Shown here piece by piece: positions 43,587-50,873 of a stretch of DNA of 64,000 nt. The DNA is from Gemmatimonadales bacterium (GTDB lineage Bacteria; Gemmatimonadota; Gemmatimonadetes; Gemmatimonadales; GWC2-71-9), in contig JAICUF010000002.1 of NCBI GenBank assembly GCA_025935995.1, positions 11,680 to 75,679 of the forward strand. Direction: 5' to 3'. Position 1 is the first letter of the stretch, and every line of letters starts with the position of its first letter. Both the position numbers and the translations under genes were made by a program. The notes below the pieces were generated by a model, which was not told the origin of the DNA, ran no database searches, and saw nothing but the letters and a program-made list of their open reading frames with translations.

Positions 43587-45638
43587 TCAGAGAAGCAGGT
43601 CGCTTCGCACCCGCTTCCGCACCGCCCACCAGAGCGCGCCGGCCAGATTGGATTTGCGGACCACGACCGACGCCTCGCCGCTCGCGCCCGGCCGCCAGGC
43701 GGCGCCGGCCGGCAGGTGCACGCGCGCCTCGACGTCCCCCGTCGCCGCGGTGCGCGACACGCTCGTGATCGCGCCGCGCACCGGATGCGCGACATCGGCG
43801 AGCGAGAGGAGCGTCACGCGCTGCCCCGGCGCCACCAGCGTCGAGCCGCTGCCGTTGAGCCGGATGCGCACTTCGGATGAATCCGGCTCCCCGATCGTCA
43901 GCACGGTCTGTCCCGCATCGACCCACTGGCCGCTGAGCCATTCGGGTCGCGCCGTGAGCACGACCCCCGCCTCCGGCGCCCGGAGCGCGAGCGCCGCGAT
44001 GCGCGCGCGCGCGGCGTCCAGGCCGGCCGCGGCCACCGCGCGCTCCCGCGCGAGCCGCTCCGCCTCGCCCGCGTCGCCGGCCGCGCGCGCACGGGCTTCG
44101 AGCATCGCGAGCGAATCGGCCGAGCGGCGCCCGGCGATCGCGGCGCGCTCGAGGGCAAAGTCGCGGAGCCGCACCAGCGGCGCGCCGGCGGGCACGCTCG
44201 TCCCTTCGCGCACCATGACGCTCGCCACGTAGGCGGAGTCGGGGGCGACGAGCGCCGTGGCGCGGGCAGGGGCGGCGGTGAAGGGGCCCGTCACGGTGAT
44301 GGACCACGGGATGAACAGGAGGGCGAGCAGCACCGCGAGCACCGCCGCGCCGACGCGGAAGCGGAGCGGCTTCGCGAGCAGCGCTTCCCGATGCTCCCGC
44401 ACCGAGCGCCCGATCGCGGCGGCCCAGGAGCGGATCTGGCCCCTCAGGAGAAGCAGAATCCCGCCCAGCGCCACGACGACGCCCGTGAACCCGAACACCC
44501 GACCGGCCCGGGTCACCACGAACGAGCCGACCAGCGTCAGCACCATGATCAGATAGGCGAACGATGCGATGCCGTAGAGCAGGAAGACCTTCCGTTCCCG
44601 CTCCGAGGCGGGCGGCATGGCAACCTCGAGCCGCAGCAGGTGGCGCTGCACCATCCAGCGCAGGTGATCGAAGGCCCGGTGCCGCATGTTGGGGATCTCG
44701 AGCCAGTCGCTGAGCGCGAAGTAGCCGTCGAGCGGCATCAGCGGGTTCGCGTTGGTGAGCGCCGAAACGACGCCACCCACGAGGAAGGTGAAGAGGGCGA
44801 GCTGCGACACCATCGTTCCCGGCTCCGCCAGCCACCACACGATCCCCGCGAGCGACGCGACGATCGCCTCGATCCACGAGCCCGCGGCGGTCACGGCGAG
44901 CCGCGCGCGCAGCTCGGGAAAGGTCCAGGCGTCGTTCACGTTGGCGAAGAAGGCGGGCTGGAAGTAGAGCAGCATGAAGCCCATCTCGTGCACCTCGCCC
45001 CCGTAGTGCTTGCAGGTGATCCCGTGTCCCAGCTCATGGATCAGGATGATGACCATGAGGGTGAGCCAGAGGAGCACGGCGAGCCCCGGGGTGTACGAGC
45101 CCAGGTGCGTGAGCTGCGCAAAGCCGGTGTGGAGCTTGTCCCAGTTCGTCGCCATGAGGACGAGATTGACGGCGAAGAGGGCGAGCGAGAAGATCACGAA
45201 CCCGCGCGTGTAGAAGAAGCCGAGGCGCGGGATCCAGCGGTTGAAGAGCGCGTCGGGATCGCCCATGGACCACCGCATCCGCAGCAGCTCACCCTTGAAG
45301 AGGCGGGGCCGCGCGCGCCGCTTCCGCTCGGCGCGGAGCCGCTCGAGCTGGAGGACGCTCCGCTCGCCGACCGACCGCTCCATCAGTCCCATGCGGTTGA
45401 GCTTCTGCGCGAATCCCTCGACCGCCGCCTCCGAGACCCCGATCCCCGCCTCGCGCAGCGCCTCCGCCGCCTCGCCGCAGGTCCGGGTGCCGTCGAGCGC
45501 GCGCATGACGGTGATCTCGACCGAGCGGAAGCGGAAGTATTTCTGGCTCGCGAGATCCTTGACGACGTAGCTCAGCTCGCCGCGGTAGGTCTGCTCCACG
45601 ATGGCGACGTCGGGGCGGAGCCGCGGCGTGCGGGTCAT
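43587..45638 (-). CDS. three-part fusion: N-terminal PqqD/RRE-like domain + M50 (site-2 protease) membrane metalloprotease + C-terminal HlyD-type adaptor domain
   Basis: 683 aa. HELGH is at aa 201-205 (nt 45024-45038) inside a TM helix, and the second S2P motif NANPLMPLDG lies downstream. aa ~440-683 carry lipoyl halves (...VMVREGTSVPAGAPLVRL... / ...LRAPEAGVVLT...), a coiled coil and a beta-barrel. aa ~30-88 (...ITVMRALDGTRTCGEAAEALREAGIGVSEAAVEGFAQKLNRMGLME) follow the PqqD-family pattern. Confidence 0.9.
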   Translation of the reverse strand: MTRTPRLRPDVAIVEQTYRGELSYVVKDLASQKYFRFRSVEITVMRALDGTRTCGEAAEALREAGIGVSEAAVEGFAQKLNRMGLMERSVGERSVLQLERLRAERKRRARPRLFKGELLRMRWSMGDPDALFNRWIPRLGFFYTRGFVIFSLALFAVNLVLMATNWDKLHTGFAQLTHLGSYTPGLAVLLWLTLMVIILIHELGHGITCKHYGGEVHEMGFMLLYFQPAFFANVNDAWTFPELRARLAVTAAGSWIEAIVASLAGIVWWLAEPGTMVSQLALFTFLVGGVVSALTNANPLMPLDGYFALSDWLEIPNMRHRAFDHLRWMVQRHLLRLEVAMPPASERERKVFLLYGIASFAYLIMVLTLVGSFVVTRAGRVFGFTGVVVALGGILLLLRGQIRSWAAAIGRSVREHREALLAKPLRFRVGAAVLAVLLALLFIPWSITVTGPFTAAPARATALVAPDSAYVASVMVREGTSVPAGAPLVRLRDFALERAAIAGRRSADSLAMLEARARAAGDAGEAERLARERAVAAAGLDAARARIAALALRAPEAGVVLTARPEWLSGQWVDAGQTVLTIGEPDSSEVRIRLNGSGSTLVAPGQRVTLLSLADVAHPVRGAITSVSRTAATGDVEARVHLPAGAAWRPGASGEASVVVRKSNLAGALWWAVRKRVRSDLLL

Positions 45639-46618
45639 CGCGCGGCGCGCACCACCGTCTCGCCGGGCGTGAGGCCGCTCGCCACCTCGACCCGGCCCCC
45701 GCTCAGATCGCCGCCGAGGGTGACCGCGCGGAGCGTGGTGCGGTCATTGGCCCAGACGAGCACGTATCCATCGGGGGAGAGCGCGGAGCGCGGCATCGCC
45801 ACGACCCAGCGGCGCTGGGCTCCGAGGCGGACCGTGACGCTGGCACCGGGGACGAGATGGGCGCCGCTGTCGAGCTGCACGACCGCCTCCTGGGTGCCGC
45901 TCGCGGCGTCGATGGCCGGCGAGACCCGCACGATGCGGCCGGCCGCGGCCGCGCCCCGGAGACCCAGCACGCGCGCCGGAGCGCCGGGCCGGATGCCGTC
46001 GGCGGAATTCTCGGGCACCCGCACCGAGACGAGGAGCGGCGACGCGGCGGTGACGCGGAAGAGCGAATCACCCACGCGGACCAGGCGGCGCGCGCGGGCC
46101 ATGCGCGCGGTGACCACGCCGGCGAAGGGCGCCACCACCCGGGTGAGGTCGGCGTCGCGCCGCGCCTGACGCAGCTGGATCTCCGCGCGCCGAAGCTCCG
46201 ACTCAACCTGCTCCAGCTCCGCCGCGGTGGACCCGCCGGCGGCCGCCAGCGCGCGCTGCCGGACCGCGACCCGGCGGGCGTTGTCGGCCTCTTCGGTGGC
46301 GCGGGCCAGCGCGATCTGCTGATCGGTGCTCTCGAGACTCGCGAGCAGCTGGCCCGCCGCCACGCGGCTTCCGAGATCGGCGTGGACCGCCTCGACCAGT
46401 CCCGGGGCCCGCGCGATCACGACCGCATCATTCTCGACGTAGAGCTGGCCGGGCAGCGAGAGGGGCGCGTCCACCAGCTCGCTGTCCACCGTCGCGAGAG
46501 TCGCCGGCGGGGTCGCCGCGCGGCGCGCGGGCGGCGTGGCGGTTTCGGCGCGGGGATCGCCTCCGCAGGCCGCGGCGCCCAGCGCCAGGATGAGTCCGAC
46601 CGCATGGCGACTCGTCAT
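45635..46618 (-). CDS. HlyD-type periplasmic adaptor lipoprotein
   Basis: Start at MTSRHAVGLILALGAAACGG (lipobox). ATGA overlaps with both neighbours (46615-46618, 45635-45638). ...VEAVHADLGSRVAAGQLLASL...coiled coil...VVAPFAGVVTA...beta-barrel. Confidence 0.85.
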   Translation of the reverse strand: MTSRHAVGLILALGAAACGGDPRAETATPPARRAATPPATLATVDSELVDAPLSLPGQLYVENDAVVIARAPGLVEAVHADLGSRVAAGQLLASLESTDQQIALARATEEADNARRVAVRQRALAAAGGSTAAELEQVESELRRAEIQLRQARRDADLTRVVAPFAGVVTARMARARRLVRVGDSLFRVTAASPLLVSVRVPENSADGIRPGAPARVLGLRGAAAAGRIVRVSPAIDAASGTQEAVVQLDSGAHLVPGASVTVRLGAQRRWVVAMPRSALSPDGYVLVWANDRTTLRAVTLGGDLSGGRVEVASGLTPGETVVRAAR

Positions 46619-48042
46619 GACCAGATCCTCCACCAGAGAAGCCGCGCCCAGCGGGCCGGCGCCCGCACCATCCGCGTCGCGACGGATGCCGGCGCCGTCA
46701 GCACCCGCGCATACGCGGCCATCCCCGGGCGCAGCAGGCCGTCGGGATTGGCCACCAGCGCGCGGACCGGGAAGCGCACATGGTCGGCCGAGTCGGCGGG
46801 CAGGGGACCGAGCGAGATGACGCGGCCGCTGAAGGTGCGCTGCGGCAGCGCGTCGACCCGGAGCCGCACCTCGTTGCCCACCGACACTCGGCCGATCTCG
46901 CGCTGGTCGATCCCGAACTCGAGCTCCAGGCTGTCGGTGCGGCCCACGGTCAGGATGAGATCACCCGCGTCGAGCCAGCTGCCGGTACGCTCCTCGGGCC
47001 GCGGCGTGAGCACCACGCCCGAGGACGGCGCTCGCACCGTCGCGGCCGCGATCTCCTCGTCGAGCAGCGCCACCTCCTGGCGCAGCGATTCGCCGCGCAC
47101 CCGCTGGCTCCGTTCTTCGGCAGCGTCGCCCCGGCTCGCGGCCAGGGCGGCGGCGCGGTCGCTGGCGGCCACCGCGGCGGCGGCCGCAATGCGGGCACTG
47201 CGGGTCTCGATGTCGCGGAGCTGCACCAGCGGCGTCCCCCGCGCGACCGCCGTCCCCTCCCGCACCAGCACCCGCTCGACCACGCCGGGCACCAGCGCCC
47301 GCACCTGCACCATGCTGGCCGGCCGGAAGACCGGGCTGCTCCCGCTCACGCGGAGCGGCCAGCGGATGAGCGTGAGCGCGGCGAGCGCCACCACCGCGAG
47401 CGCGGCATAGGCCTGCCGCTGGCGGCGAGGGAGCTCCATGAAGGCGCGCTTCTTCGCGGCGAGCGCGCCCAGGGTGTCGATGAGCGGGACCTGCGCGTAG
47501 AGCTGCGCGTTCCGGAGCGCCACCGCCGTCTGGTTGGCGAGGATCGCGGCGACCTCGCGCTGGCGCTGCGTCGCGAATTCCGGCTCCCCTGATTCGAAGA
47601 GCAGGATGCCGAGGGTGCCCTCCTCGTCCCGGAGCGGCAGGTAGAGACCGCTCCTGACCCCGTCGGCCTCCAGGTCCTGACCGAAGATCTGCACCAGCTG
47701 GCGCTCGGCGTCGGAGGCGGGGTCGGCGCGGTCGACGAGGTAGAACGACTCACCGTGGCCCGCGACCCAGGCGGCGCGCGCGGCCAGGTCGAGGACGCGC
47801 GGGTCCTTCGCATTCACCGTATCCTGACCCGCCATAGCGCGGATGTCGCAGACGCCCTTGTCGTAGAGCGCCACGGCGGCGCGGTCGAAGGTGAGGGCCT
47901 GCGCGGAGAGATTGACGACGGAGCGGAGTACCCGGTCGAGGTCGAGGCTCGCCGTGATCTCGCGGCTGATCTCGAGCAGGAGGGTAAGGTCGGCGGCGGC
48001 CGGGGTGCCGGCGCCGGAGGGCGGACTGGTTGTGGCGGTCAC
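46615..48042 (-). CDS. GAF domain - TM helix - HlyD-type adaptor fusion protein
   Basis: 475 aa, GTG start. aa ~18-185 form a GAF domain (...LLLEISREITASLDLDRVLRSVVNLSAQAL...LYLPLRDEEGTLGILLFES...ILANQTAVALRNAQLY). TM helix AYAALAVVALAALTLI. Then lipoyl halves, coiled coil and beta-barrel (...VLVREGTAVARGTPLVQL.../...VRAPSSGVVLT...). Confidence 0.85.
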   Translation of the reverse strand: MTATTSPPSGAGTPAAADLTLLLEISREITASLDLDRVLRSVVNLSAQALTFDRAAVALYDKGVCDIRAMAGQDTVNAKDPRVLDLAARAAWVAGHGESFYLVDRADPASDAERQLVQIFGQDLEADGVRSGLYLPLRDEEGTLGILLFESGEPEFATQRQREVAAILANQTAVALRNAQLYAQVPLIDTLGALAAKKRAFMELPRRQRQAYAALAVVALAALTLIRWPLRVSGSSPVFRPASMVQVRALVPGVVERVLVREGTAVARGTPLVQLRDIETRSARIAAAAAVAASDRAAALAASRGDAAEERSQRVRGESLRQEVALLDEEIAAATVRAPSSGVVLTPRPEERTGSWLDAGDLILTVGRTDSLELEFGIDQREIGRVSVGNEVRLRVDALPQRTFSGRVISLGPLPADSADHVRFPVRALVANPDGLLRPGMAAYARVLTAPASVATRMVRAPARWARLLWWRIWS

Positions 48043-48057
48043 GGACAGGATATACAG

Positions 48058-48091
48058 AAAAAAAGCGGGCGCCGGAAGACCCGGCGCCCGC
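48058..48091 (-). terminator. rho-independent terminator/attenuator between the mini-ORFs and the GAF-HlyD gene
   Basis: Read on the minus strand: GCGGGCGCCGG-GTCTT-CCGGCGCCCGC (perfect 11-bp GC stem at 48065-48075/48081-48091, 5-nt loop) followed by TTTTTTT (48058-48064). It lies 20 nt after the mini-ORF-2 stop and 16 nt before the GTG at 48042. Confidence 0.75.
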
Positions 48092-48110
48092 TTTCGCGTT
48101 CAGCCGATCC

Positions 48111-48263
48111 TCAGGAGGGGACGACCGTCCGCGGGGCGATCCGCTGCTCCAGCTCTTCCACGCTCAGCTCGATGGCTTCGGCGGACTTGCCGGTCGCGGT
48201 CCGGATCTGATTCTTCTGCTCGTCGGTCAGGTTGATCCTGAGGTGCTTCTTCTCGTCGGCCAT
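48111..48263 (-). CDS. mini-ORF 2: 50-aa peptide MADEKKHLRINLTDEQKNQIRTATGKSAEAIELSVEELEQRIAPRTVVPS (candidate precursor peptide)
   Basis: Translated by hand; it is below the cut-off of the supplied ORF track. ATG at 48263 is preceded by GGGAGAG, and the stop is TGA at 48111-48113. Paralogous to mini-ORF 1, and followed by the terminator. Confidence 0.65.
   Translation of the reverse strand: MADEKKHLRINLTDEQKNQIRTATGKSAEAIELSVEELEQRIAPRTVVPS
48126..48172 (-). repeat. 47-bp direct repeat copy B (inside mini-ORF 2)
   Basis: Identical to 48320-48366 at 46 of 47 positions (the single difference is a synonymous CTG/CTC). Encodes (I/V)ELSVEELEQRIAPRT. Confidence 0.9.
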
Positions 48264-48310
48264 GGTGTCTCTCCCTGTGTTGAACTGCGTGAACGATCCT
48301 GTCGTACGGC

Positions 48311-48451
48311 CTAGAGCATCGTCCGCGGGGCGATCCGCTGCTCGAGCTCTTCCACGCTCAGCTCGACCGAATCAACCGCCTTGCCCATCGCCTTCTCGAG
48401 CTCGGCCTTCTGGTCGGGGGTCAGTTCGATCTTGATGTTCTGGTCAGCCAT
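48311..48451 (-). CDS. mini-ORF 1: 46-aa peptide MADQNIKIELTPDQKAELEKAMGKAVDSVELSVEELEQRIAPRTML (candidate precursor peptide)
   Basis: Translated by hand. ATG at 48451 is preceded by AAGGAGA (6-nt spacer), and the stop is TAG at 48311-48313. It shares MAD..., the I.LT..QK...GK pattern and the identical 15-aa block ELSVEELEQRIAPRT with mini-ORF 2. Confidence 0.7.
   Translation of the reverse strand: MADQNIKIELTPDQKAELEKAMGKAVDSVELSVEELEQRIAPRTML
48320..48366 (-). repeat. 47-bp direct repeat copy A (inside mini-ORF 1)
   Basis: See copy B. The flanking N-terminal coding sequence and the last 2-4 codons have diverged, whereas this block is conserved at the nucleotide level. Confidence 0.9.
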
Positions 48452-48505
48452 CTTGGTCTCCTTGTTGGGCCGCAGGGCGGCGGGGGTCGCAACGAACTGG
48501 GAACG

Positions 48506-48511
48506 AGTCTA
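48506..48511 (-). promoter_or_regulatory. candidate -10 hexamer TAGACT for the mini-ORF transcript
   Basis: Minus strand reads TTTCACGAATTTTTCACG-CCGGCGCCG-TAGACT. The hexamer is about 55 nt upstream of the mini-ORF-1 ATG, and there is no canonical -35. Confidence 0.3.
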
Positions 48512-48521
48512 CGGCGCCGGC

Positions 48522-48539
48522 GTGAAAAATTCGTGAAAT
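48522..48539. promoter_or_regulatory. repeat box A: GTGAAAAATTC-GTGAAAT (two GTGAAA heptamer-type repeats, 11-bp spacing)
   Basis: GTGAAA begins at 48522 and 48533. On the minus strand the pair sits where a -35 element would be for the TAGACT hexamer. AT-rich island in GC-rich DNA. Confidence 0.5.
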
Positions 48540-48575
48540 CGCCTGGGCTCGGCTGGCGGCAGCCGGCCGGACAGC

Positions 48576-48582
48576 GTGAAGA
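48576..48582. promoter_or_regulatory. single degenerate repeat GTGAAGA
   Basis: It starts 33 bp (3 x 11) upstream of the first repeat of box B, and 43 and 54 bp from the two box A repeats. Confidence 0.3.
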
Positions 48583-48608
48583 ACGGCGACCCGGCGCCAC
48601 CCCCGAAC

Positions 48609-48626
48609 GTGAAAAACTCGTGAAAA
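48609..48626. promoter_or_regulatory. repeat box B: GTGAAAAACTC-GTGAAAAG (two GTGAAA repeats, 11-bp spacing)
   Basis: GTGAAA begins at 48609 and 48620. 16 of 18 nt are identical to box A. It ends 6 nt before the TTG (48633) that opens the regulator ORF and is followed by GATATT. Confidence 0.5.
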
Positions 48627-48632
48627 GGGATA

Positions 48633-50873
48633 TTGCGGTCCCCAGCCGAGGCGGTATGTTGGCCAATCACCCGAAAATCGGCTGGAGGTCCCACGAGCCC
48701 CTTTGCGCTGCGGCTGCTCGGTTCGCCAAGCGTCTCCACCGGAGACGAGGGGACGACTGCGCACCTGGGCGCCAAGGAGCTGTCGCTCCTGGCCTACCTC
48801 GCGCTCGAGCCCGGCCCGCATCCCCGGGAGGAGCTGGCCGCACTCCTCTGGGGCGAATCGTCGGACGCCGACGCCCGGGCCTCGCTCCGCCAGGCGCTCA
48901 AGCATCTGCGGGACGCGCTGGGTGATGCGCTCGTGGTCGAGCGGGGCAGCGCGATGCTCGGCCCGGGCATCTCCTCCGACGTCGCCGACTTCCGCCGGGC
49001 CGCCGCCGGAAGTCCCGCCGACGCCATTCGCTTCGACATTCCCCACGCGCTGGCCGGGCTCTCGGTCCGGCACGCTCCCGTCTTCGACGAGTGGCTGGAG
49101 CGGACGCGGGCCGAGCTTCGCCGGGAATATGAGGAGGCGCTCGCGACGGTGGGGCGCGAGGCACTGGGACGGCACGCGTGGCGGGAGGCGTTGCAGGTGG
49201 CCGACCGCTGGCTGGCCGCCGACCCGCTGGCCGAGGCGGCGATCCGGCTGGCCGTGGAGGCGAGCTATCTCTCGGGCGATCGCCGGGCCGCGCTCGCCCG
49301 CTTCGCGGACTACCGCCGCCTGCTCGAGCGCGAGGGTGGCGTCGCGCCGGGCCATGCGCTCCTCTCGCTGGTGCGGCGGGTCGAGTCCGACGGCACCCTC
49401 GATGCGCCGAATCCTTCCGCCGACGACTGGTACGCCCGCCCGCCCGCGCTGCAGGCCGCGCTGATCGAGCGCGACACCGAATGGCGCGCGCTGAGCGGCG
49501 CCTGGCGAACCCTCGGCCCGTCGAGTGGCGCCATCGTCCTCATGGAAGGCGAGGCCGGCGCCGGGAAGACGCGGCTCGCCGAGGAGTTCCTGCGGTGGGT
49601 GGTGGCGGAGGGAGGTGCCGTCCTGCGGGGCCGCGGCTACGGCGGCCGCGCCGGCGTGTCCTACGGCACGATGGTCGAGGTGCTGGGCGAGTCGCTCGAT
49701 CAGGCGGGCGTGGGCGGCACCGCGCCCGACTGGCTCTCGGAGGTGGCGCGGCTCGTGCCGGAGATCCGCCAGCGATTCCCGGGGCTGCCCGCGCCGTCGC
49801 CCGGCAGCGATCCGATGCACGGGAGCCGACTCTACGAAGGCGTCGCCCAGATGCTGCTCGCCATCTCGGCCGAGCGGCCGGTGGTGGTGGCGGTGGACGA
49901 TCTGCAGTGGTGCGACGAGGACTCGTGCAGTCTCCTCCTCTTCCTGGCCCGCCGGCTCGAGCGCGCACCCATCCTCTGGCTCGGTCTCCTGACGCTGGGG
50001 GAGCTCGAGCGCGATGCGCCGGCGGCGCGACTCTGCCGCGTGTGGCGCACCCGGCCGCACGCCGGCGCCATCACGCTCGCGCCGCTCAGCGCCGACGGCG
50101 TGCTGGCCCTCGTGTCGGAGATGGGGCGGCTCCGGGAGGGCGGCGAGGCGCGGCGGTTCGCGGCACGCCTGCACGAGGTGACGCGCGGCAATCCCTTCTA
50201 TCTCCAGGAGCTGCTCAAGACGCTCTTCGCGCAGGAGGTGCTGCGCGACTCGCCGGAGGGATGGGTGCTGCCGGAGCCGCAGTCTCCCGGCGTGCTCGAC
50301 GTCTCGATGCCGCGGTCGGTGCAGGACGCGATCGCCGAGCGGGTGGAGCGGCTGCCGGAGCCGGCGCACGCGATGCTGGTGACGGTGGCGGTGGCGGAGA
50401 CGGGCTGCGACACCGAGGTGCTGTCGCACATGCACGGCATCTCGCGCCTGCATGCCGCCGCGCTGGGCGACGCGCTCGTGGGACGGCGCCTGCTGGTGGA
50501 GGAGGAGAACGCGTACCGCTGCGCGCACCCCGTGATCGGCCGCGTGGTGCGCGACGGGCTCTCCCCCTCGAGGCGGCGCGAGGTGCACCGGAGTCTCGCG
50601 CTCACCCTCCAGGGTCTCGCGCGCGACTCGGGCGATCCGACGCTCGCGGGGGTGATCGCGCTGCACGCCGACCGCGGCGGCGAGCGGGGACTCGCGTACC
50701 AGGCCGCGCTCTCGGCGAGTCAGATCGCGGCGGAGCGCTTCACGCAGGAGGAGGCGCTGAGCTGGCTCGATCAGGCGGCCACCTACGCGCGCACGCCCGA
50801 GGAGGCCGCGGAGGTGAATCGCCTTACGGCGCTGCTGGTGGACGGGACGGCGCCGCTGCTCGAGACCCGCTGA
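48633..50873 (+). CDS. SARP-type transcriptional activator (OmpR-like wHTH + BTAD) fused to a P-loop AAA/NB-ARC-like ATPase and C-terminal helical repeats
   Basis: ...FALRLLGSPSV...LGAKELSLLAYLALEPGPHPREELAALLWGES...ASLRQALKHLRDALG... (wHTH). ...FDEWLERTRAELRREYEEAL...ALARFADYRRLLEREGGVAPG... (BTAD). Walker A GEAGAGKT and ...VVVAVDDLQWCD... (Walker B). The start is uncertain: the TTG at 48633 is the first start-type codon in frame. Confidence 0.85.
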   Translation: MRSPAEAVCWPITRKSAGGPTSPFALRLLGSPSVSTGDEGTTAHLGAKELSLLAYLALEPGPHPREELAALLWGESSDADARASLRQALKHLRDALGDALVVERGSAMLGPGISSDVADFRRAAAGSPADAIRFDIPHALAGLSVRHAPVFDEWLERTRAELRREYEEALATVGREALGRHAWREALQVADRWLAADPLAEAAIRLAVEASYLSGDRRAALARFADYRRLLEREGGVAPGHALLSLVRRVESDGTLDAPNPSADDWYARPPALQAALIERDTEWRALSGAWRTLGPSSGAIVLMEGEAGAGKTRLAEEFLRWVVAEGGAVLRGRGYGGRAGVSYGTMVEVLGESLDQAGVGGTAPDWLSEVARLVPEIRQRFPGLPAPSPGSDPMHGSRLYEGVAQMLLAISAERPVVVAVDDLQWCDEDSCSLLLFLARRLERAPILWLGLLTLGELERDAPAARLCRVWRTRPHAGAITLAPLSADGVLALVSEMGRLREGGEARRFAARLHEVTRGNPFYLQELLKTLFAQEVLRDSPEGWVLPEPQSPGVLDVSMPRSVQDAIAERVERLPEPAHAMLVTVAVAETGCDTEVLSHMHGISRLHAAALGDALVGRRLLVEEENAYRCAHPVIGRVVRDGLSPSRRREVHRSLALTLQGLARDSGDPTLAGVIALHADRGGERGLAYQAALSASQIAAERFTQEEALSWLDQAATYARTPEEAAEVNRLTALLVDGTAPLLETR

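Follow-up and report, generated by a model that had tools for sequence, protein, structure and literature searches.

Genes and repeats at the locus

The window, a 64-kb stretch of Gemmatimonadales DNA, carries two small peptide genes divergent from a large regulator gene. On the minus strand, mini-ORF 1 (48311..48451) encodes a peptide of 46 aa whose conserved N-terminal part ends in EELEQRIAP and is followed by a short variable tail, RTML, and mini-ORF 2 (48111..48263) encodes a paralogous 50-aa peptide with the tail RTVVPS. No Pfam or NCBIfam model matched the peptides. Mini-ORF 2 is followed by a terminator-like hairpin (48061..48095, minus strand; 16 pairs and then a T run, folding at -31 kcal/mol) and by three further minus-strand genes within 43587..48042. 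These encode a GAF-HlyD adaptor (48042..46615), an HlyD/RND-type adaptor (46633..45635), and a daptide-type HExxH intramembrane metalloprotease fused to an HlyD-like domain (45638..43587). The three genes follow the peptide genes in all 50 homologous loci with enough sequence, and the regulator gene is syntenic with this cassette in the same 50 loci. The terminator is asserted for the window only; a crude search for a hairpin and T run after the last peptide gene was positive in 19 of 68 loci.

The regulator gene lies on the plus strand (48633..50873 by the ORF rule, counted from a TTG) and encodes a large-SARP-like protein with an ODB wHTH domain, a BTAD, a STAND NOD, and a short C-terminal helical region. 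An earlier note on this DNA had called the product a SARP-AAA protein, and the domain searches agreed. Pfam assigned Trans_reg_C to residues 41-98 (27.8 bits; cut-off, 26.2), BTAD to residues 144-250, directly after the DNA-binding domain (42 bits; cut-off, 22.1), and AAA_16 (E = 9e-22), and the structural model of the DNA-binding domain had the strand-helix pattern (pLDDT 76-92). AfsR was the closest solved relative: it was the sole PDB sequence match by phmmer (8HVR_I, over residues 18-230, E = 6.4e-5) and the top Foldseek match (8K60_J, E = 1e-8, ~250 columns over the SARP domain), with EmbR (E ~1e-6), the STAND protein 6MFV, MalT (8BOB), and plant NLRs also found by Foldseek. Pfam gave no TPR match for the regulator; its C terminus was modeled as a winged-helix-like unit and about five helices (645-739), and the C-terminal region of NCBIfam TOMM_kin_cyc matched residues 400-726. 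The model NF053617 (SARPRegAfsRStmc) scored 23 bits against a cut-off of 1430, which is below equivalog level. Judged from its sequence, the regulator is AfsR-like in architecture and is no AfsR orthologue.

Short repeats lie on the plus strand between mini-ORF 1 and the regulator gene. GTGAAA begins at 48522, 48533, 48609, and 48620 and GTGAAG at 48576, as the earlier note had reported, and a repeat search bore out its two tandem pairs with an exact 11-bp phase and its lone copy 33 bp ahead of the second pair. The count of 16 of 18 identical nucleotides between the pairs is true in the frame chosen there; in the repeat search, CGTGAAAAATTCGTGAAA (48521-48538) and CGTGAAAAACTCGTGAAA (48608-48625), 87 bp apart, were 94% identical (17/18). 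GTGAAA had been taken as the unit, and it does repeat, but the conserved unit is CGTGAA(W), with C before GTGAA in 76/78 and 75/78 homologues. Pair A (48521..48538) consists of two CGTGAA(W) boxes 11 bp apart, which read WTTCACG-N4-WTTCACG on the minus, peptide-sense strand. The single box, CGTGAAG (48575..48581), lies 43 bp after the second box of pair A and 33 bp before pair B (48608..48625), whose two CGTGAA boxes are likewise 11 bp apart and end 7 nt before the regulator -35.

When up to one mismatch was allowed, GTGAAANNNNNGTGAAA had two matches in the 64-kb window, both in this intergenic region. GTGAAA-N5-GTGAAA occurred twice in the 64 kb, with 0.01 expected by chance, and none of the 100 dinucleotide-preserving shuffles of the window that set this expectation reached two. 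Half of the eight GTGAAA hexamers of the whole window fall within one 104-bp stretch here. Scored with a position weight matrix trained on homologous loci with the window left out, pair A reached 28.3 bits and pair B 26.3 bits, and the next best site in the window 1.7 bits. The description of the repeats as AT-rich islands fits the boxes themselves but not composition on a 60-nt scale, since the intergenic region falls only to 0.55-0.68 GC in 60-nt segments, compared with ~0.75 in the flanking genes. An Rfam scan of the region at E ≤ 1 gave no match on the repeats, with sub-threshold matches on the terminator hairpin only, and an RNA-family explanation of the repeats was dropped because no Rfam family matched.

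Conservation of the boxes across Gemmatimonadales

Conservation was analyzed for 80 species-level loci with a homologous regulator, each with about ±6 kb, which gave 71 readable regulator/peptide intergenic regions. All of the loci are from Gemmatimonadales/Gemmatimonadota MAGs save one, from a record labelled Bacillota bacterium, and the MAG loci are uncultured. The 11-bp-phased pair GTGA[AT]-N6-GTGA[AT] was present in 69 of the 71 homologous intergenic regions. CGTGAA was the most enriched 6-mer there (198 observed, 2.4 expected) and was found at least twice in 62 of the 71 loci; 198 of 202 box units were on the regulator-sense strand. Across 941 kb searched on both strands, 76 strict pairs lay inside the 12.6 kb of regulator/peptide intergenic DNA and 32 elsewhere, nearly all of the latter upstream of second peptide genes or, in contig-end loci, upstream of the regulator. 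Boxes were present at unlinked peptide genes in six loci. Three detached regulators, one of them from a locus among these six, kept TTGCCG-16-TAnnnT and had no boxes. The boxes travel with the peptide genes, since they occur at unlinked peptide genes and are absent at detached regulators.

In the six-member clade to which the window belongs, the alignment has conserved islands at the -10, pair A, the single box, pair B, the regulator -35 and -10, and the SD-ACG. The CGTGAA of the single box is invariant in 6/6 members, with diverging flanks. Pairs A and B are 85-87 bp apart within the clade, and among other two-module loci the figure ranges from 78 to 111 bp; this variation leaves an obligatory same-face or looped A-B complex unsupported. 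The recognition helix of the regulator, ARASLRQ, is near-invariant as well (~73 of 80 loci, the others being one residue off), at overall identities of 44-91%, and matches the invariant CGTGA core of the boxes. One distant locus, that of a detached regulator, has CGCAAA repeats despite an identical ARASLRQ helix.

Boxes that are kept in about 70 species while their flanks diverge, that have a chance expectation of 0.01 and no Rfam match, and that lie upstream of both predicted transcription starts could barely conceivably be non-regulatory products of chance or slippage, a mobile remnant, an RNA element, or ECF-sigma promoter elements, even though two pairs 17/18 identical and 87 bp apart resemble a local duplication. 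GTGAAA does resemble some ECF -35 motifs. The ECF-sigma reading was rejected because 11-bp pairs with nAnnnT at 9 nt misfit a -35/-10 layout and the third box that it needs is absent in the window.

The box sequence alone is not diagnostic beyond Gemmatimonadales. The exact 18-mer CGTGAAAAAYTCGTGAAA was found on at least 120 metagenome contigs, most of those listed being unrelated and many low in GC; among the matches listed, four contigs were of this system, and all four matches adjoined the regulator. The 18-mer also recurs in intergenic contexts of unrelated high-GC bacteria, once just before an ORF starting MRILIVE. This recurrence favors a reading, unlikely in our estimation, in which an OmpR/PhoB-family response regulator encoded elsewhere binds the boxes and places the peptide operon under a two-component signal, while the SARP-like protein either has its sites elsewhere or is a competitor, in the way that PhoP and AfsR compete at afsS. 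Such a regulator would suit the format of the repeats, which is that of PHO boxes (7+4 nt in 11-bp units over the -35, with the TTCAC core of GTTCACC) (PMC4415409), and PhoP and AfsR are known to bind overlapping sites (PMC10936776). In ~1 Mb of Gemmatimonadales DNA, however, the pairs lie only at peptide promoters and beside this regulator. No response-regulator gene is conserved in the cassette, and it is the SARP-like regulator that is syntenic with the cassette in all 50 of the loci noted above and whose helix is near-invariant like the box core. As far as conservation can indicate, the boxes are very probably binding sites for the neighboring AfsR-like activator.

Predicted promoters and proposed mechanism

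On the minus strand, pair A reads TTTCACGAATTTTTCACG and is followed after 9 nt by TAGACT (48511..48506), which ends 55 nt before the ATG of mini-ORF 1 at 48451, both as the earlier note had claimed. We assigned TAGACT as the predicted peptide promoter -10 from cross-species conservation. In an anchored alignment, the second and sixth positions of this hexamer were nearly invariant as A (-11) and T (-7), and for 103 of 124 box pairs an nAnnnT hexamer lay at precisely 9 nt from the peptide-side box; the distance is counted from the hexamer core TTCACG and is 8 nt when the repeat is taken as a heptamer. Transcription is predicted to start at ~48498-48499, which would give a 5' UTR of ~47 nt, and if the start is assumed to fall 7 nt past the -10 hexamer, the boxes cover about -38/-33 and -27/-22. 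Nothing resembling a -35 hexamer occurs 16-18 bp from this -10; the distal TTCACG would be at 20 bp.

Published SARP targets follow a rule in which direct repeats are spaced by 11 or 22 bp and 8 bp separate the 3' repeat from the -10 (PMC10936776). The repeats here are spaced 11 bp, with a third box 21-23 bp beyond the second in 43 of 69 loci, lie ~8 bp from the predicted -10, and overlap the -35/spacer, so that the earlier suggestion of SARP boxes in place of a -35 held in every element open to computation. The same layout of repeats and -10 is repeated across about 70 species-level genomes. Promoter calls in this analysis rest on cross-species conservation because a strict sigma-70 consensus scan of 47900-48900 found no promoter, the hexamers matching too few consensus positions. 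Mini-ORF 2, unlike its counterparts in many relatives, had no box pair of its own in the window by the matrix scan and is therefore probably co-transcribed with mini-ORF 1.

The putative regulator promoter (48633..48660, plus strand) comprises the -35 TTGCGG (48633-48638; 3/6 consensus positions), a 16-nt spacer, and the -10 TATGTT (48655-48660), with transcription predicted to start at ~48667. TTGnnn-N16-TAnnnT occurs at equal offset in 62 of 69 loci (consensus TTGCCC/TTGCCG and TAGGTT), and in these 62 the -35 TTG falls 22-24 nt after the first GTGAA of the regulator-side pair. Both hexamers are among the conserved islands of the clade alignment. Given a start at 48667, pair B would lie at ~-59..-42 and the single box at ~-92/-86. 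Pair B has no adjoining peptide-side -10, the hexamer at that position being GGCGCC. In most relatives the two promoters flank a single pair, and a third box, 22 bp on, falls within the regulator promoter spacer; this third box is 32-34 bp after the first, that is, 21-23 bp after the second, in 43 of 69 loci.

The TTG at 48633 was rejected as the regulator start: it belongs to the -35 hexamer, and the N-terminal extension it would create is unconserved, with residues 1-21 predicted to be disordered (pLDDT ~26). The start given by the ORF rule is thus an annotation error, a point missed in the earlier note. A probable RBS and initiator lie at 48684..48695 on the plus strand, with GGAGG at 48684-48688, 4 nt, and ACG at 48693. 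GGAGG-ACG is invariant in 6/6 clade members, and the ACG aligned to the initiator Met of other clades; one locus (L003) has no canonical in-frame start upstream. The true start is probably at or after 48693.

It had been proposed that pair B may serve autoregulation. This is plausible for the window, where pair B lies upstream of a conserved regulator promoter and is kept throughout the six-member clade. Regulators away from peptide genes have that same promoter and zero boxes, which argues against autoregulation as a trait common to the whole family. The third box within the regulator promoter spacer of relatives suggests negative autoregulation there.

We consider it likely that the divergent AfsR-like large SARP has the CGTGAA(W) boxes as its operator and would activate the peptide promoter by sigma adaptation. 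Two regulator protomers, arranged head-to-tail, would occupy pair A (about -38/-33 and -27/-22) from a single face of the helix, and the bound dimer would substitute for -35 recognition and recruit a sigma-70-type RNA polymerase to the TAGACT promoter, as shown for AfsR at afsS. Both small peptide genes would be switched on by the bound regulator, and read-through of the terminator (48095-48061) would turn on the GAF-HlyD, HlyD, and M50-HlyD genes too. The regulator itself would be transcribed from a conventional promoter of its own, TTGCGG-16-TATGTT. Pair B and the single box are found a short way upstream of this promoter and would most likely let the bound regulator influence its own expression, and in other relatives a single pair may serve both back-to-back promoters.

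The same binding could in principle have the opposite effect, with the regulator acting as a repressor or roadblock on the peptide -35/spacer, and on its own promoter via the third box, until a signal arrives. The boxes cover the region that repressors usually bind, a location unusual for activators (PMC7040171), and the third box is inside the regulator's own promoter spacer in the 43 loci noted above, but the peptide promoter, which has nothing like a -35 at 16-18 bp, should be weak unless an activator is present. The geometry also equals that of AfsR, a proven activator, and the protein has a BTAD activation domain, which together make repression very improbable. Under the preferred reading, with the regulator as activator, the predicted regulator/operator pair is CGTGAA(W)-N4-CGTGAA(W), 9 nt, and the -10. 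The boxes also mark the other peptide genes examined, unlinked ones included, and the pair could be used for regulon finding, for reporters, or for heterologous activation of the conserved peptide/protease/adaptor cassette. Gemmatimonadota are abundant in soil and genetically almost unstudied.

A wider reading, which we regard as rather doubtful, is that the locus forms a self-contained Gemmatimonadota peptide-signaling (autoinduction) circuit with the SARP as a pheromone-responsive switch. In the small genes, a conserved leader of 42 aa precedes a hypervariable tail of 3-15 aa. Cleavage and export of the tail would fall to the M50 protease-HlyD fusion together with the two other HlyD-like proteins, and the mature peptide, or a cell-state signal via the NOD and the C-terminal helices, would be sensed by the STAND-type SARP. 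Acting at the CGTGAA boxes, the SARP would then turn on the peptide promoter, and boxes at the regulator promoter would close the feedback loop. If true, this would be a pheromone-responsive SARP outside actinomycetes.

Comparison with known systems

The closest parallel is AfsR of Streptomyces coelicolor (8HVR, 8K60), which likewise has an OmpR-type DNA-binding domain, a BTAD, and a STAND NOD. At afsS, as here, two 11-bp direct repeats on one helical face cover the -35/spacer of a promoter with a poor -35, and the target is a small ORF. The register is also the same: the afs box of afsS has TTCAGC at -38..-33, with T-38 and T-27 contacted (PMC10936776), and TTCACG here lies at about -38..-33 and -27..-22 from the predicted start. 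The regulator differs from AfsR in phylum (Gemmatimonadota instead of Actinomycetota), with ~30% identity over the SARP domain, and in its C-terminal helical region, which is short (~95 aa) where AfsR has a long TPR domain. In place of T88 and R92, which contact bases in AfsR, the alignment has Q and H, so the recognition chemistry is not transferable from AfsR. The predicted target also differs, being a peptide and an export/protease cassette that is divergent from the regulator, and extra boxes are present here at the regulator's own promoter.

Small pathway-specific SARPs (ActII-ORF4, DnrI, RedD, FdmR1, and Aur1PR4) recognize direct repeats of a heptamer and a 4-bp spacer, at 11 or 22 bp and with 8 bp between the 3' repeat and the -10, a format that the boxes here share (PMC7040171; PMC10936776). 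Their box sequence differs, e.g., TCGAGXX. Unlike the regulator here, they have no NOD and serve actinomycete polyketide/NRPS clusters, whereas here the predicted target is a peptide/HlyD/M50 cassette. They share with it the position of a cluster-situated activator adjoining the controlled genes (PMC7040171). The PHO boxes of PhoB/PhoP are two 11-nt direct units (7 conserved and 4 variable) that replace the -35 and are bound head-to-tail with contact to sigma region 4, and the S. coelicolor PHO box GTTCACC has the core TTCAC in common with the boxes here (PMC4415409). In contrast to PHO boxes, those of this system have no linked receiver-domain regulator and, in the ~1 Mb sampled, lie at peptide promoters only. 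EmbR of Mycobacterium tuberculosis (2FEZ, 2FF4) has the SARP-domain fold but carries a C-terminal FHA domain, is under Ser/Thr kinase control, and has no NOD.

SARPs have been described in the literature as exclusive to actinomycetes. The present regulator falls outside that range, which is a statement about distribution and not a structural criterion. Structures of SARP activation by sigma adaptation reportedly date only from 2023-24. Finding this protein architecture and promoter geometry in a second phylum suggests a mechanism of greater age or mobility than has been supposed.

Phased repeats in the window and across the order

GTGAAA begins at 48522, 48533, 48609 and 48620 and GTGAAG at 48576, all on the plus strand, as the earlier note had stated; four of the eight GTGAAA hexamers in the window lie inside this stretch. 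A repeat search returned pair A (48521-48538, plus strand, CGTGAAAAATTCGTGAAA) and pair B (48608-48625, plus strand, CGTGAAAAACTCGTGAAA), which share 94% identity and lie 87 bp from each other, and bore out the single copy 33 bp before pair B (the single box, 48575-48581). Allowing at most one mismatch, GTGAAANNNNNGTGAAA matched twice in the 64-kb window, both times at this site, against a chance expectation of 0.01 (100 dinucleotide-preserving shuffles, none of which reached two matches). A matrix built without the window's own sites scored the pairs at 28.3 and 26.3 bits and the next best site in the window at 1.7 bits.

At E ≤ 1e-10 the adjacent plus-strand regulator has over 1800 homologues, the named ones all being Gemmatimonadales. 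Scanning a single genome for each GTDB species yielded 80 loci, all in metagenome-assembled genomes, with 44-91% identity to the regulator; about ±6 kb was inspected at each. At 70 of these 80 loci the peptide homologues sit upstream of the regulator in divergent orientation, and most of the others are cut by a contig end or carry the peptide genes elsewhere within the locus. The three downstream genes follow the peptides at 50 of the 50 loci with sufficient sequence. Regulator, peptides and cassette form a conserved module of the order.

Of 71 regulator/peptide intergenic regions (the window's and those of 70 fetched loci), 69 have GTGA[AT]-N6-GTGA[AT], and the other two have GTGAA/GTGAC. The preceding base is C at 76/78 first and 75/78 second sites, and the following base is A or T at 72/78 second and 52/78 first sites; the conserved unit, CGTGAA(W)NNNN, consists of a heptamer and a spacer of 4 bp. 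CGTGAA was also the top 6-mer in an unbiased count (198 observed, 2.4 expected), with at least two copies at 62 of 71 loci, and the next enriched non-overlapping 6-mers were the promoter hexamers TAGGTT, CTTGCC and CAATCT. The regulator-sense strand carries 198 of 202 units. That the repeats lack a regulatory function is practically excluded by this conservation.

Across both strands of 941 kb, 76 strict pairs fell within the 12.6 kb of intergenic sequence and another 32 outside it; almost every one of these 32 precedes either a second peptide gene or, at loci truncated by a contig end, the regulator. Peptide genes of another type (MSDQKHIRLELTEEQKAQVKAATGKDARALEL...), at a distance of several kb from the regulator, have GTGAA boxes at 0, 11 and ~33 bp (L019:10224, L022:10440, L023:11501, L035:13515, L060:13369, L063:8505/8934); these boxes suggest a regulon that would extend to unlinked peptide genes.

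A PhoB-like response regulator might bind the boxes instead, since their format and TTCAC core are common to actinomycete PHO boxes (PMC4415409) and, in a metagenome-wide scan, the exact 18-mer CGTGAAAAAYTCGTGAAA recurred in bacteria that, among the matches listed, were mostly unrelated. We regard this as unlikely, because within the 941 kb searched the boxes are restricted to peptide promoters and linked with the SARP gene. Among the matches listed, CGTGAAAAAYTCGTGAAA occupies several conserved intergenic contexts in unrelated high-GC bacteria (L088:214, L168:222 and others in metagenome contigs L083-L193), once ~25 nt upstream of an ORF that starts MRILIVE and is response-regulator-like in appearance; such matches may represent tandem sites for further OmpR-type regulators.

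The peptide genes and their promoter

Mini-ORFs 1 and 2 (48311..48451 and 48111..48263; together 48111-48451, minus strand) are paralogues of 46 and 50 aa, and both end in ...LSVEELEQRIAPR plus 3-5 residues. Their family, with 134 homologues at the 80 loci in one to six tandem copies per locus (five or six in L068), has no matching Pfam or NCBIfam model. A conserved N-terminal ~42 aa (...LTPEQKxQVRxATGKDAEAVELSVEELEERIAP) precedes a hypervariable tail 3-15 aa long, a layout resembling a leader with a short core, or a pheromone precursor.

The minus-strand cassette beyond them (43587-48042) encodes a GAF-HlyD adaptor, an HlyD/RND-type adaptor and a fusion of a daptide-type HExxH intramembrane metalloprotease with an HlyD-like part. 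It thus holds three HlyD-like adaptors, one with an N-terminal GAF domain and one fused to the metalloprotease, whose match to NF041824 (209 bits) is below the cut-off of 300. No transporter gene of the ABC, RND or MFS type was found in the cassette, nor any evident modification enzyme. Between mini-ORF 2 and the GAF-HlyD gene lies a strong terminator-like hairpin (48095..48061, minus strand; 16 pairs plus a T run, ~-31 kcal/mol), whose position suggests that the peptide transcript is short and abundant and that read-through is partial; among 68 relatives, a crude search detected a similar hairpin and T run in only 19.

On the minus strand, TAGACT (48511..48506) follows pair A after 9 nt and ends 55 nt before the mini-ORF 1 ATG (48451), both spacings re-read as first described. 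In the anchored alignment, the peptide strand has an nAnnnT column pattern 9 nt beyond the peptide-side box (CAGATT, TAGACT, TAGGTT, TAGCTT), with the A and T nearly invariant. In a sigma-70 -10 hexamer these two positions matter most. Under a relaxed box definition, nAnnnT stood at exactly 9 nt in 103 of 124 pairs and at 10 nt in three more. The anchored intergenic regions have no -35-like hexamer 16-18 bp upstream of this -10; the distal TTCACG is 20 bp from it.

Mini-ORF 2 has no box pair of its own in the window and starts only 47 nt after mini-ORF 1. The second peptide gene of many relatives (L005-L011, L013, L014, L017, L020, L021, L027, L036, L039, L043, L049, L074, L078) carries its own CGTGAA-N5-CGTGAA pair and -10, often CGTGAAAAAATCGTGAA, ~170-190 nt below the first peptide ATG.

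The regulator promoter, pair B and the third box

At 62 of 69 loci, TTGnnn-N16-TAnnnT is positioned 22-24 nt beyond the regulator-side pair's first GTGAA, most commonly as TTGCCC/TTGCCG and TAGGTT. The predicted promoter in the window (plus strand) is TTGCGG (48633-48638), a 16-nt spacer and TATGTT (48655-48660), with a predicted start at ~48667 that places pair B at -59..-42. The TTG at 48633, the regulator start by the ORF rule, was rejected as it belongs to this -35 hexamer. GGAGG (48684-48688) followed after 4 nt by ACG (48693) is invariant among the six members of the window's clade, the ACG aligns to the initiator Met of other clades, and in L003 no canonical in-frame start precedes it; together these point to initiation that may occur at the ACG, or a few codons further on at a CTG/TTG.

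Most relatives have an intergenic region of only ~150 bp, with a single pair between back-to-back promoters. A third GTGA[ATC] box, mostly GTGAA, follows 32-34 bp after the first at 43 of 69 loci, two turns after the second and inside the spacer of the regulator promoter. In the window's clade (the window, L001-L004 and L012), the region is ~257 bp and holds two copies of the module, one (pair A) still with the peptide -10 and the other (pair B) still with the regulator promoter but with GGCGCC at the -10 position. Conservation there is limited to islands at TAGACTCG, pair A, the single box, pair B, TATTGCG, GGTAnnTTGGC and GGAGG-N4-ACGAGC, and the intervening DNA has diverged. Conservation amid such divergence, at a pair without a -10, indicates that pair B and the single box are under selection for something other than driving minus-strand transcription, and their position argues for action on the regulator promoter.

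Autoregulation through pair B, as the earlier note proposed, agrees with its conserved place upstream of that promoter but does not carry over to regulators away from peptide genes (L063, L032, L075), which keep the promoter and have no boxes; their unlinked peptide genes are boxed. Pairs A and B are 85-87 bp apart in the clade, and the spacing at other loci with two modules ranges over 78-111 bp, so a fixed helical relationship is not required. Two complete tandem modules (pair plus peptide-side -10), 78-111 bp apart in intergenic regions of 237-268 bp, occur in L025, L026, L031, L052, L053, L058 and L060; this duplication may be independent of that in the window's clade, whose regulator-side copy lost its -10.

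The regulator and comparison with AfsR

The SARP-AAA protein reported beside the repeats is a 746-codon plus-strand ORF with Trans_reg_C, BTAD and AAA_16 domains. Its sole sequence relative in the PDB is the AfsR SARP domain (8HVR_I, E = 6.4e-5). When its AlphaFold2 model (mean pLDDT 77) was run through Foldseek, the best matches were AfsR's SARP domain from the structure of the transcription initiation complex (8K60_J/I; target TM-score 0.65 at 30% identity, E ~1e-8) and 8HVR_I, with EmbR, the STAND protein 6MFV and MalT lower. On these grounds, the regulator is an AfsR-like "large SARP" in architecture. An AfsR orthologue was ruled out by the NCBIfam equivalog (23 bits; cut-off 1430).

The link between regulator and boxes is indirect and rests on strict synteny of regulator and cassette, on the boxes that unlinked peptide genes carry where the genome also encodes the regulator, on the recognition helix, and on the OmpR-type fold, which binds tandem direct repeats head to tail (PMC4415409). 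The helix, ARASLRQ, is near-invariant (~73 of 80 loci, the rest one residue off) at an overall identity of 44-91%, which matches the invariant CGTGA core. In the distant locus L075:8513-8640 (regulator 45% identical), CGCAAA-N5-CGCAAA replaces CGTGAA before the peptide gene, and the helix is still ARASLRQ.

SARPs have been described as exclusive to actinomycetes, matches outside mostly being without HTH or BTAD (PMC7040171), and a full-text literature search returned nothing relevant on SARPs in Gemmatimonadetes. JGI automatic annotation already labels these proteins "DNA-binding SARP family transcriptional activator", so the assignment of the protein is not new. Our literature search found no description of the operator, its AfsR-like register or its order-wide conservation in another phylum, nor of a peptide/M50/HlyD cassette marked by the boxes.

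We consider it likely that a head-to-tail SARP dimer on pair A would stand in for -35 recognition and activate the peptide operon, that pair B and the single box would tie regulator occupancy to the regulator promoter, and that the third box of compact loci probably serves negative autoregulation. A regulator acting as a repressor is highly unlikely given the missing -35, the BTAD domain and the AfsR-like geometry.

SARP targets have direct repeats 11 or 22 bp apart, the 3' repeat lying 8 bp from the -10 (PMC10936776). In the complex of AfsR with afsS, the afs box extends from -40 to -19, with TTCAGC at -38..-33 and contacts to T-38 and T-27 (PMC10936776). The base-contacting T88 and R92 of AfsR are Q and H at the aligned positions here, so readout must differ in detail. 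A predicted start 7 nt after the TAGACT hexamer, at ~48499 (A at 48498), places the boxes at -27..-22 and -38..-33, a numbering that is provisional because the start is inferred. With a predicted -10 conserved at 9 nt and no -35-like hexamer, the idea that the repeats take the place of a -35 is supported by comparison, and their predicted register equals that of the afs box within 1 nt, the cores sharing TTCA.
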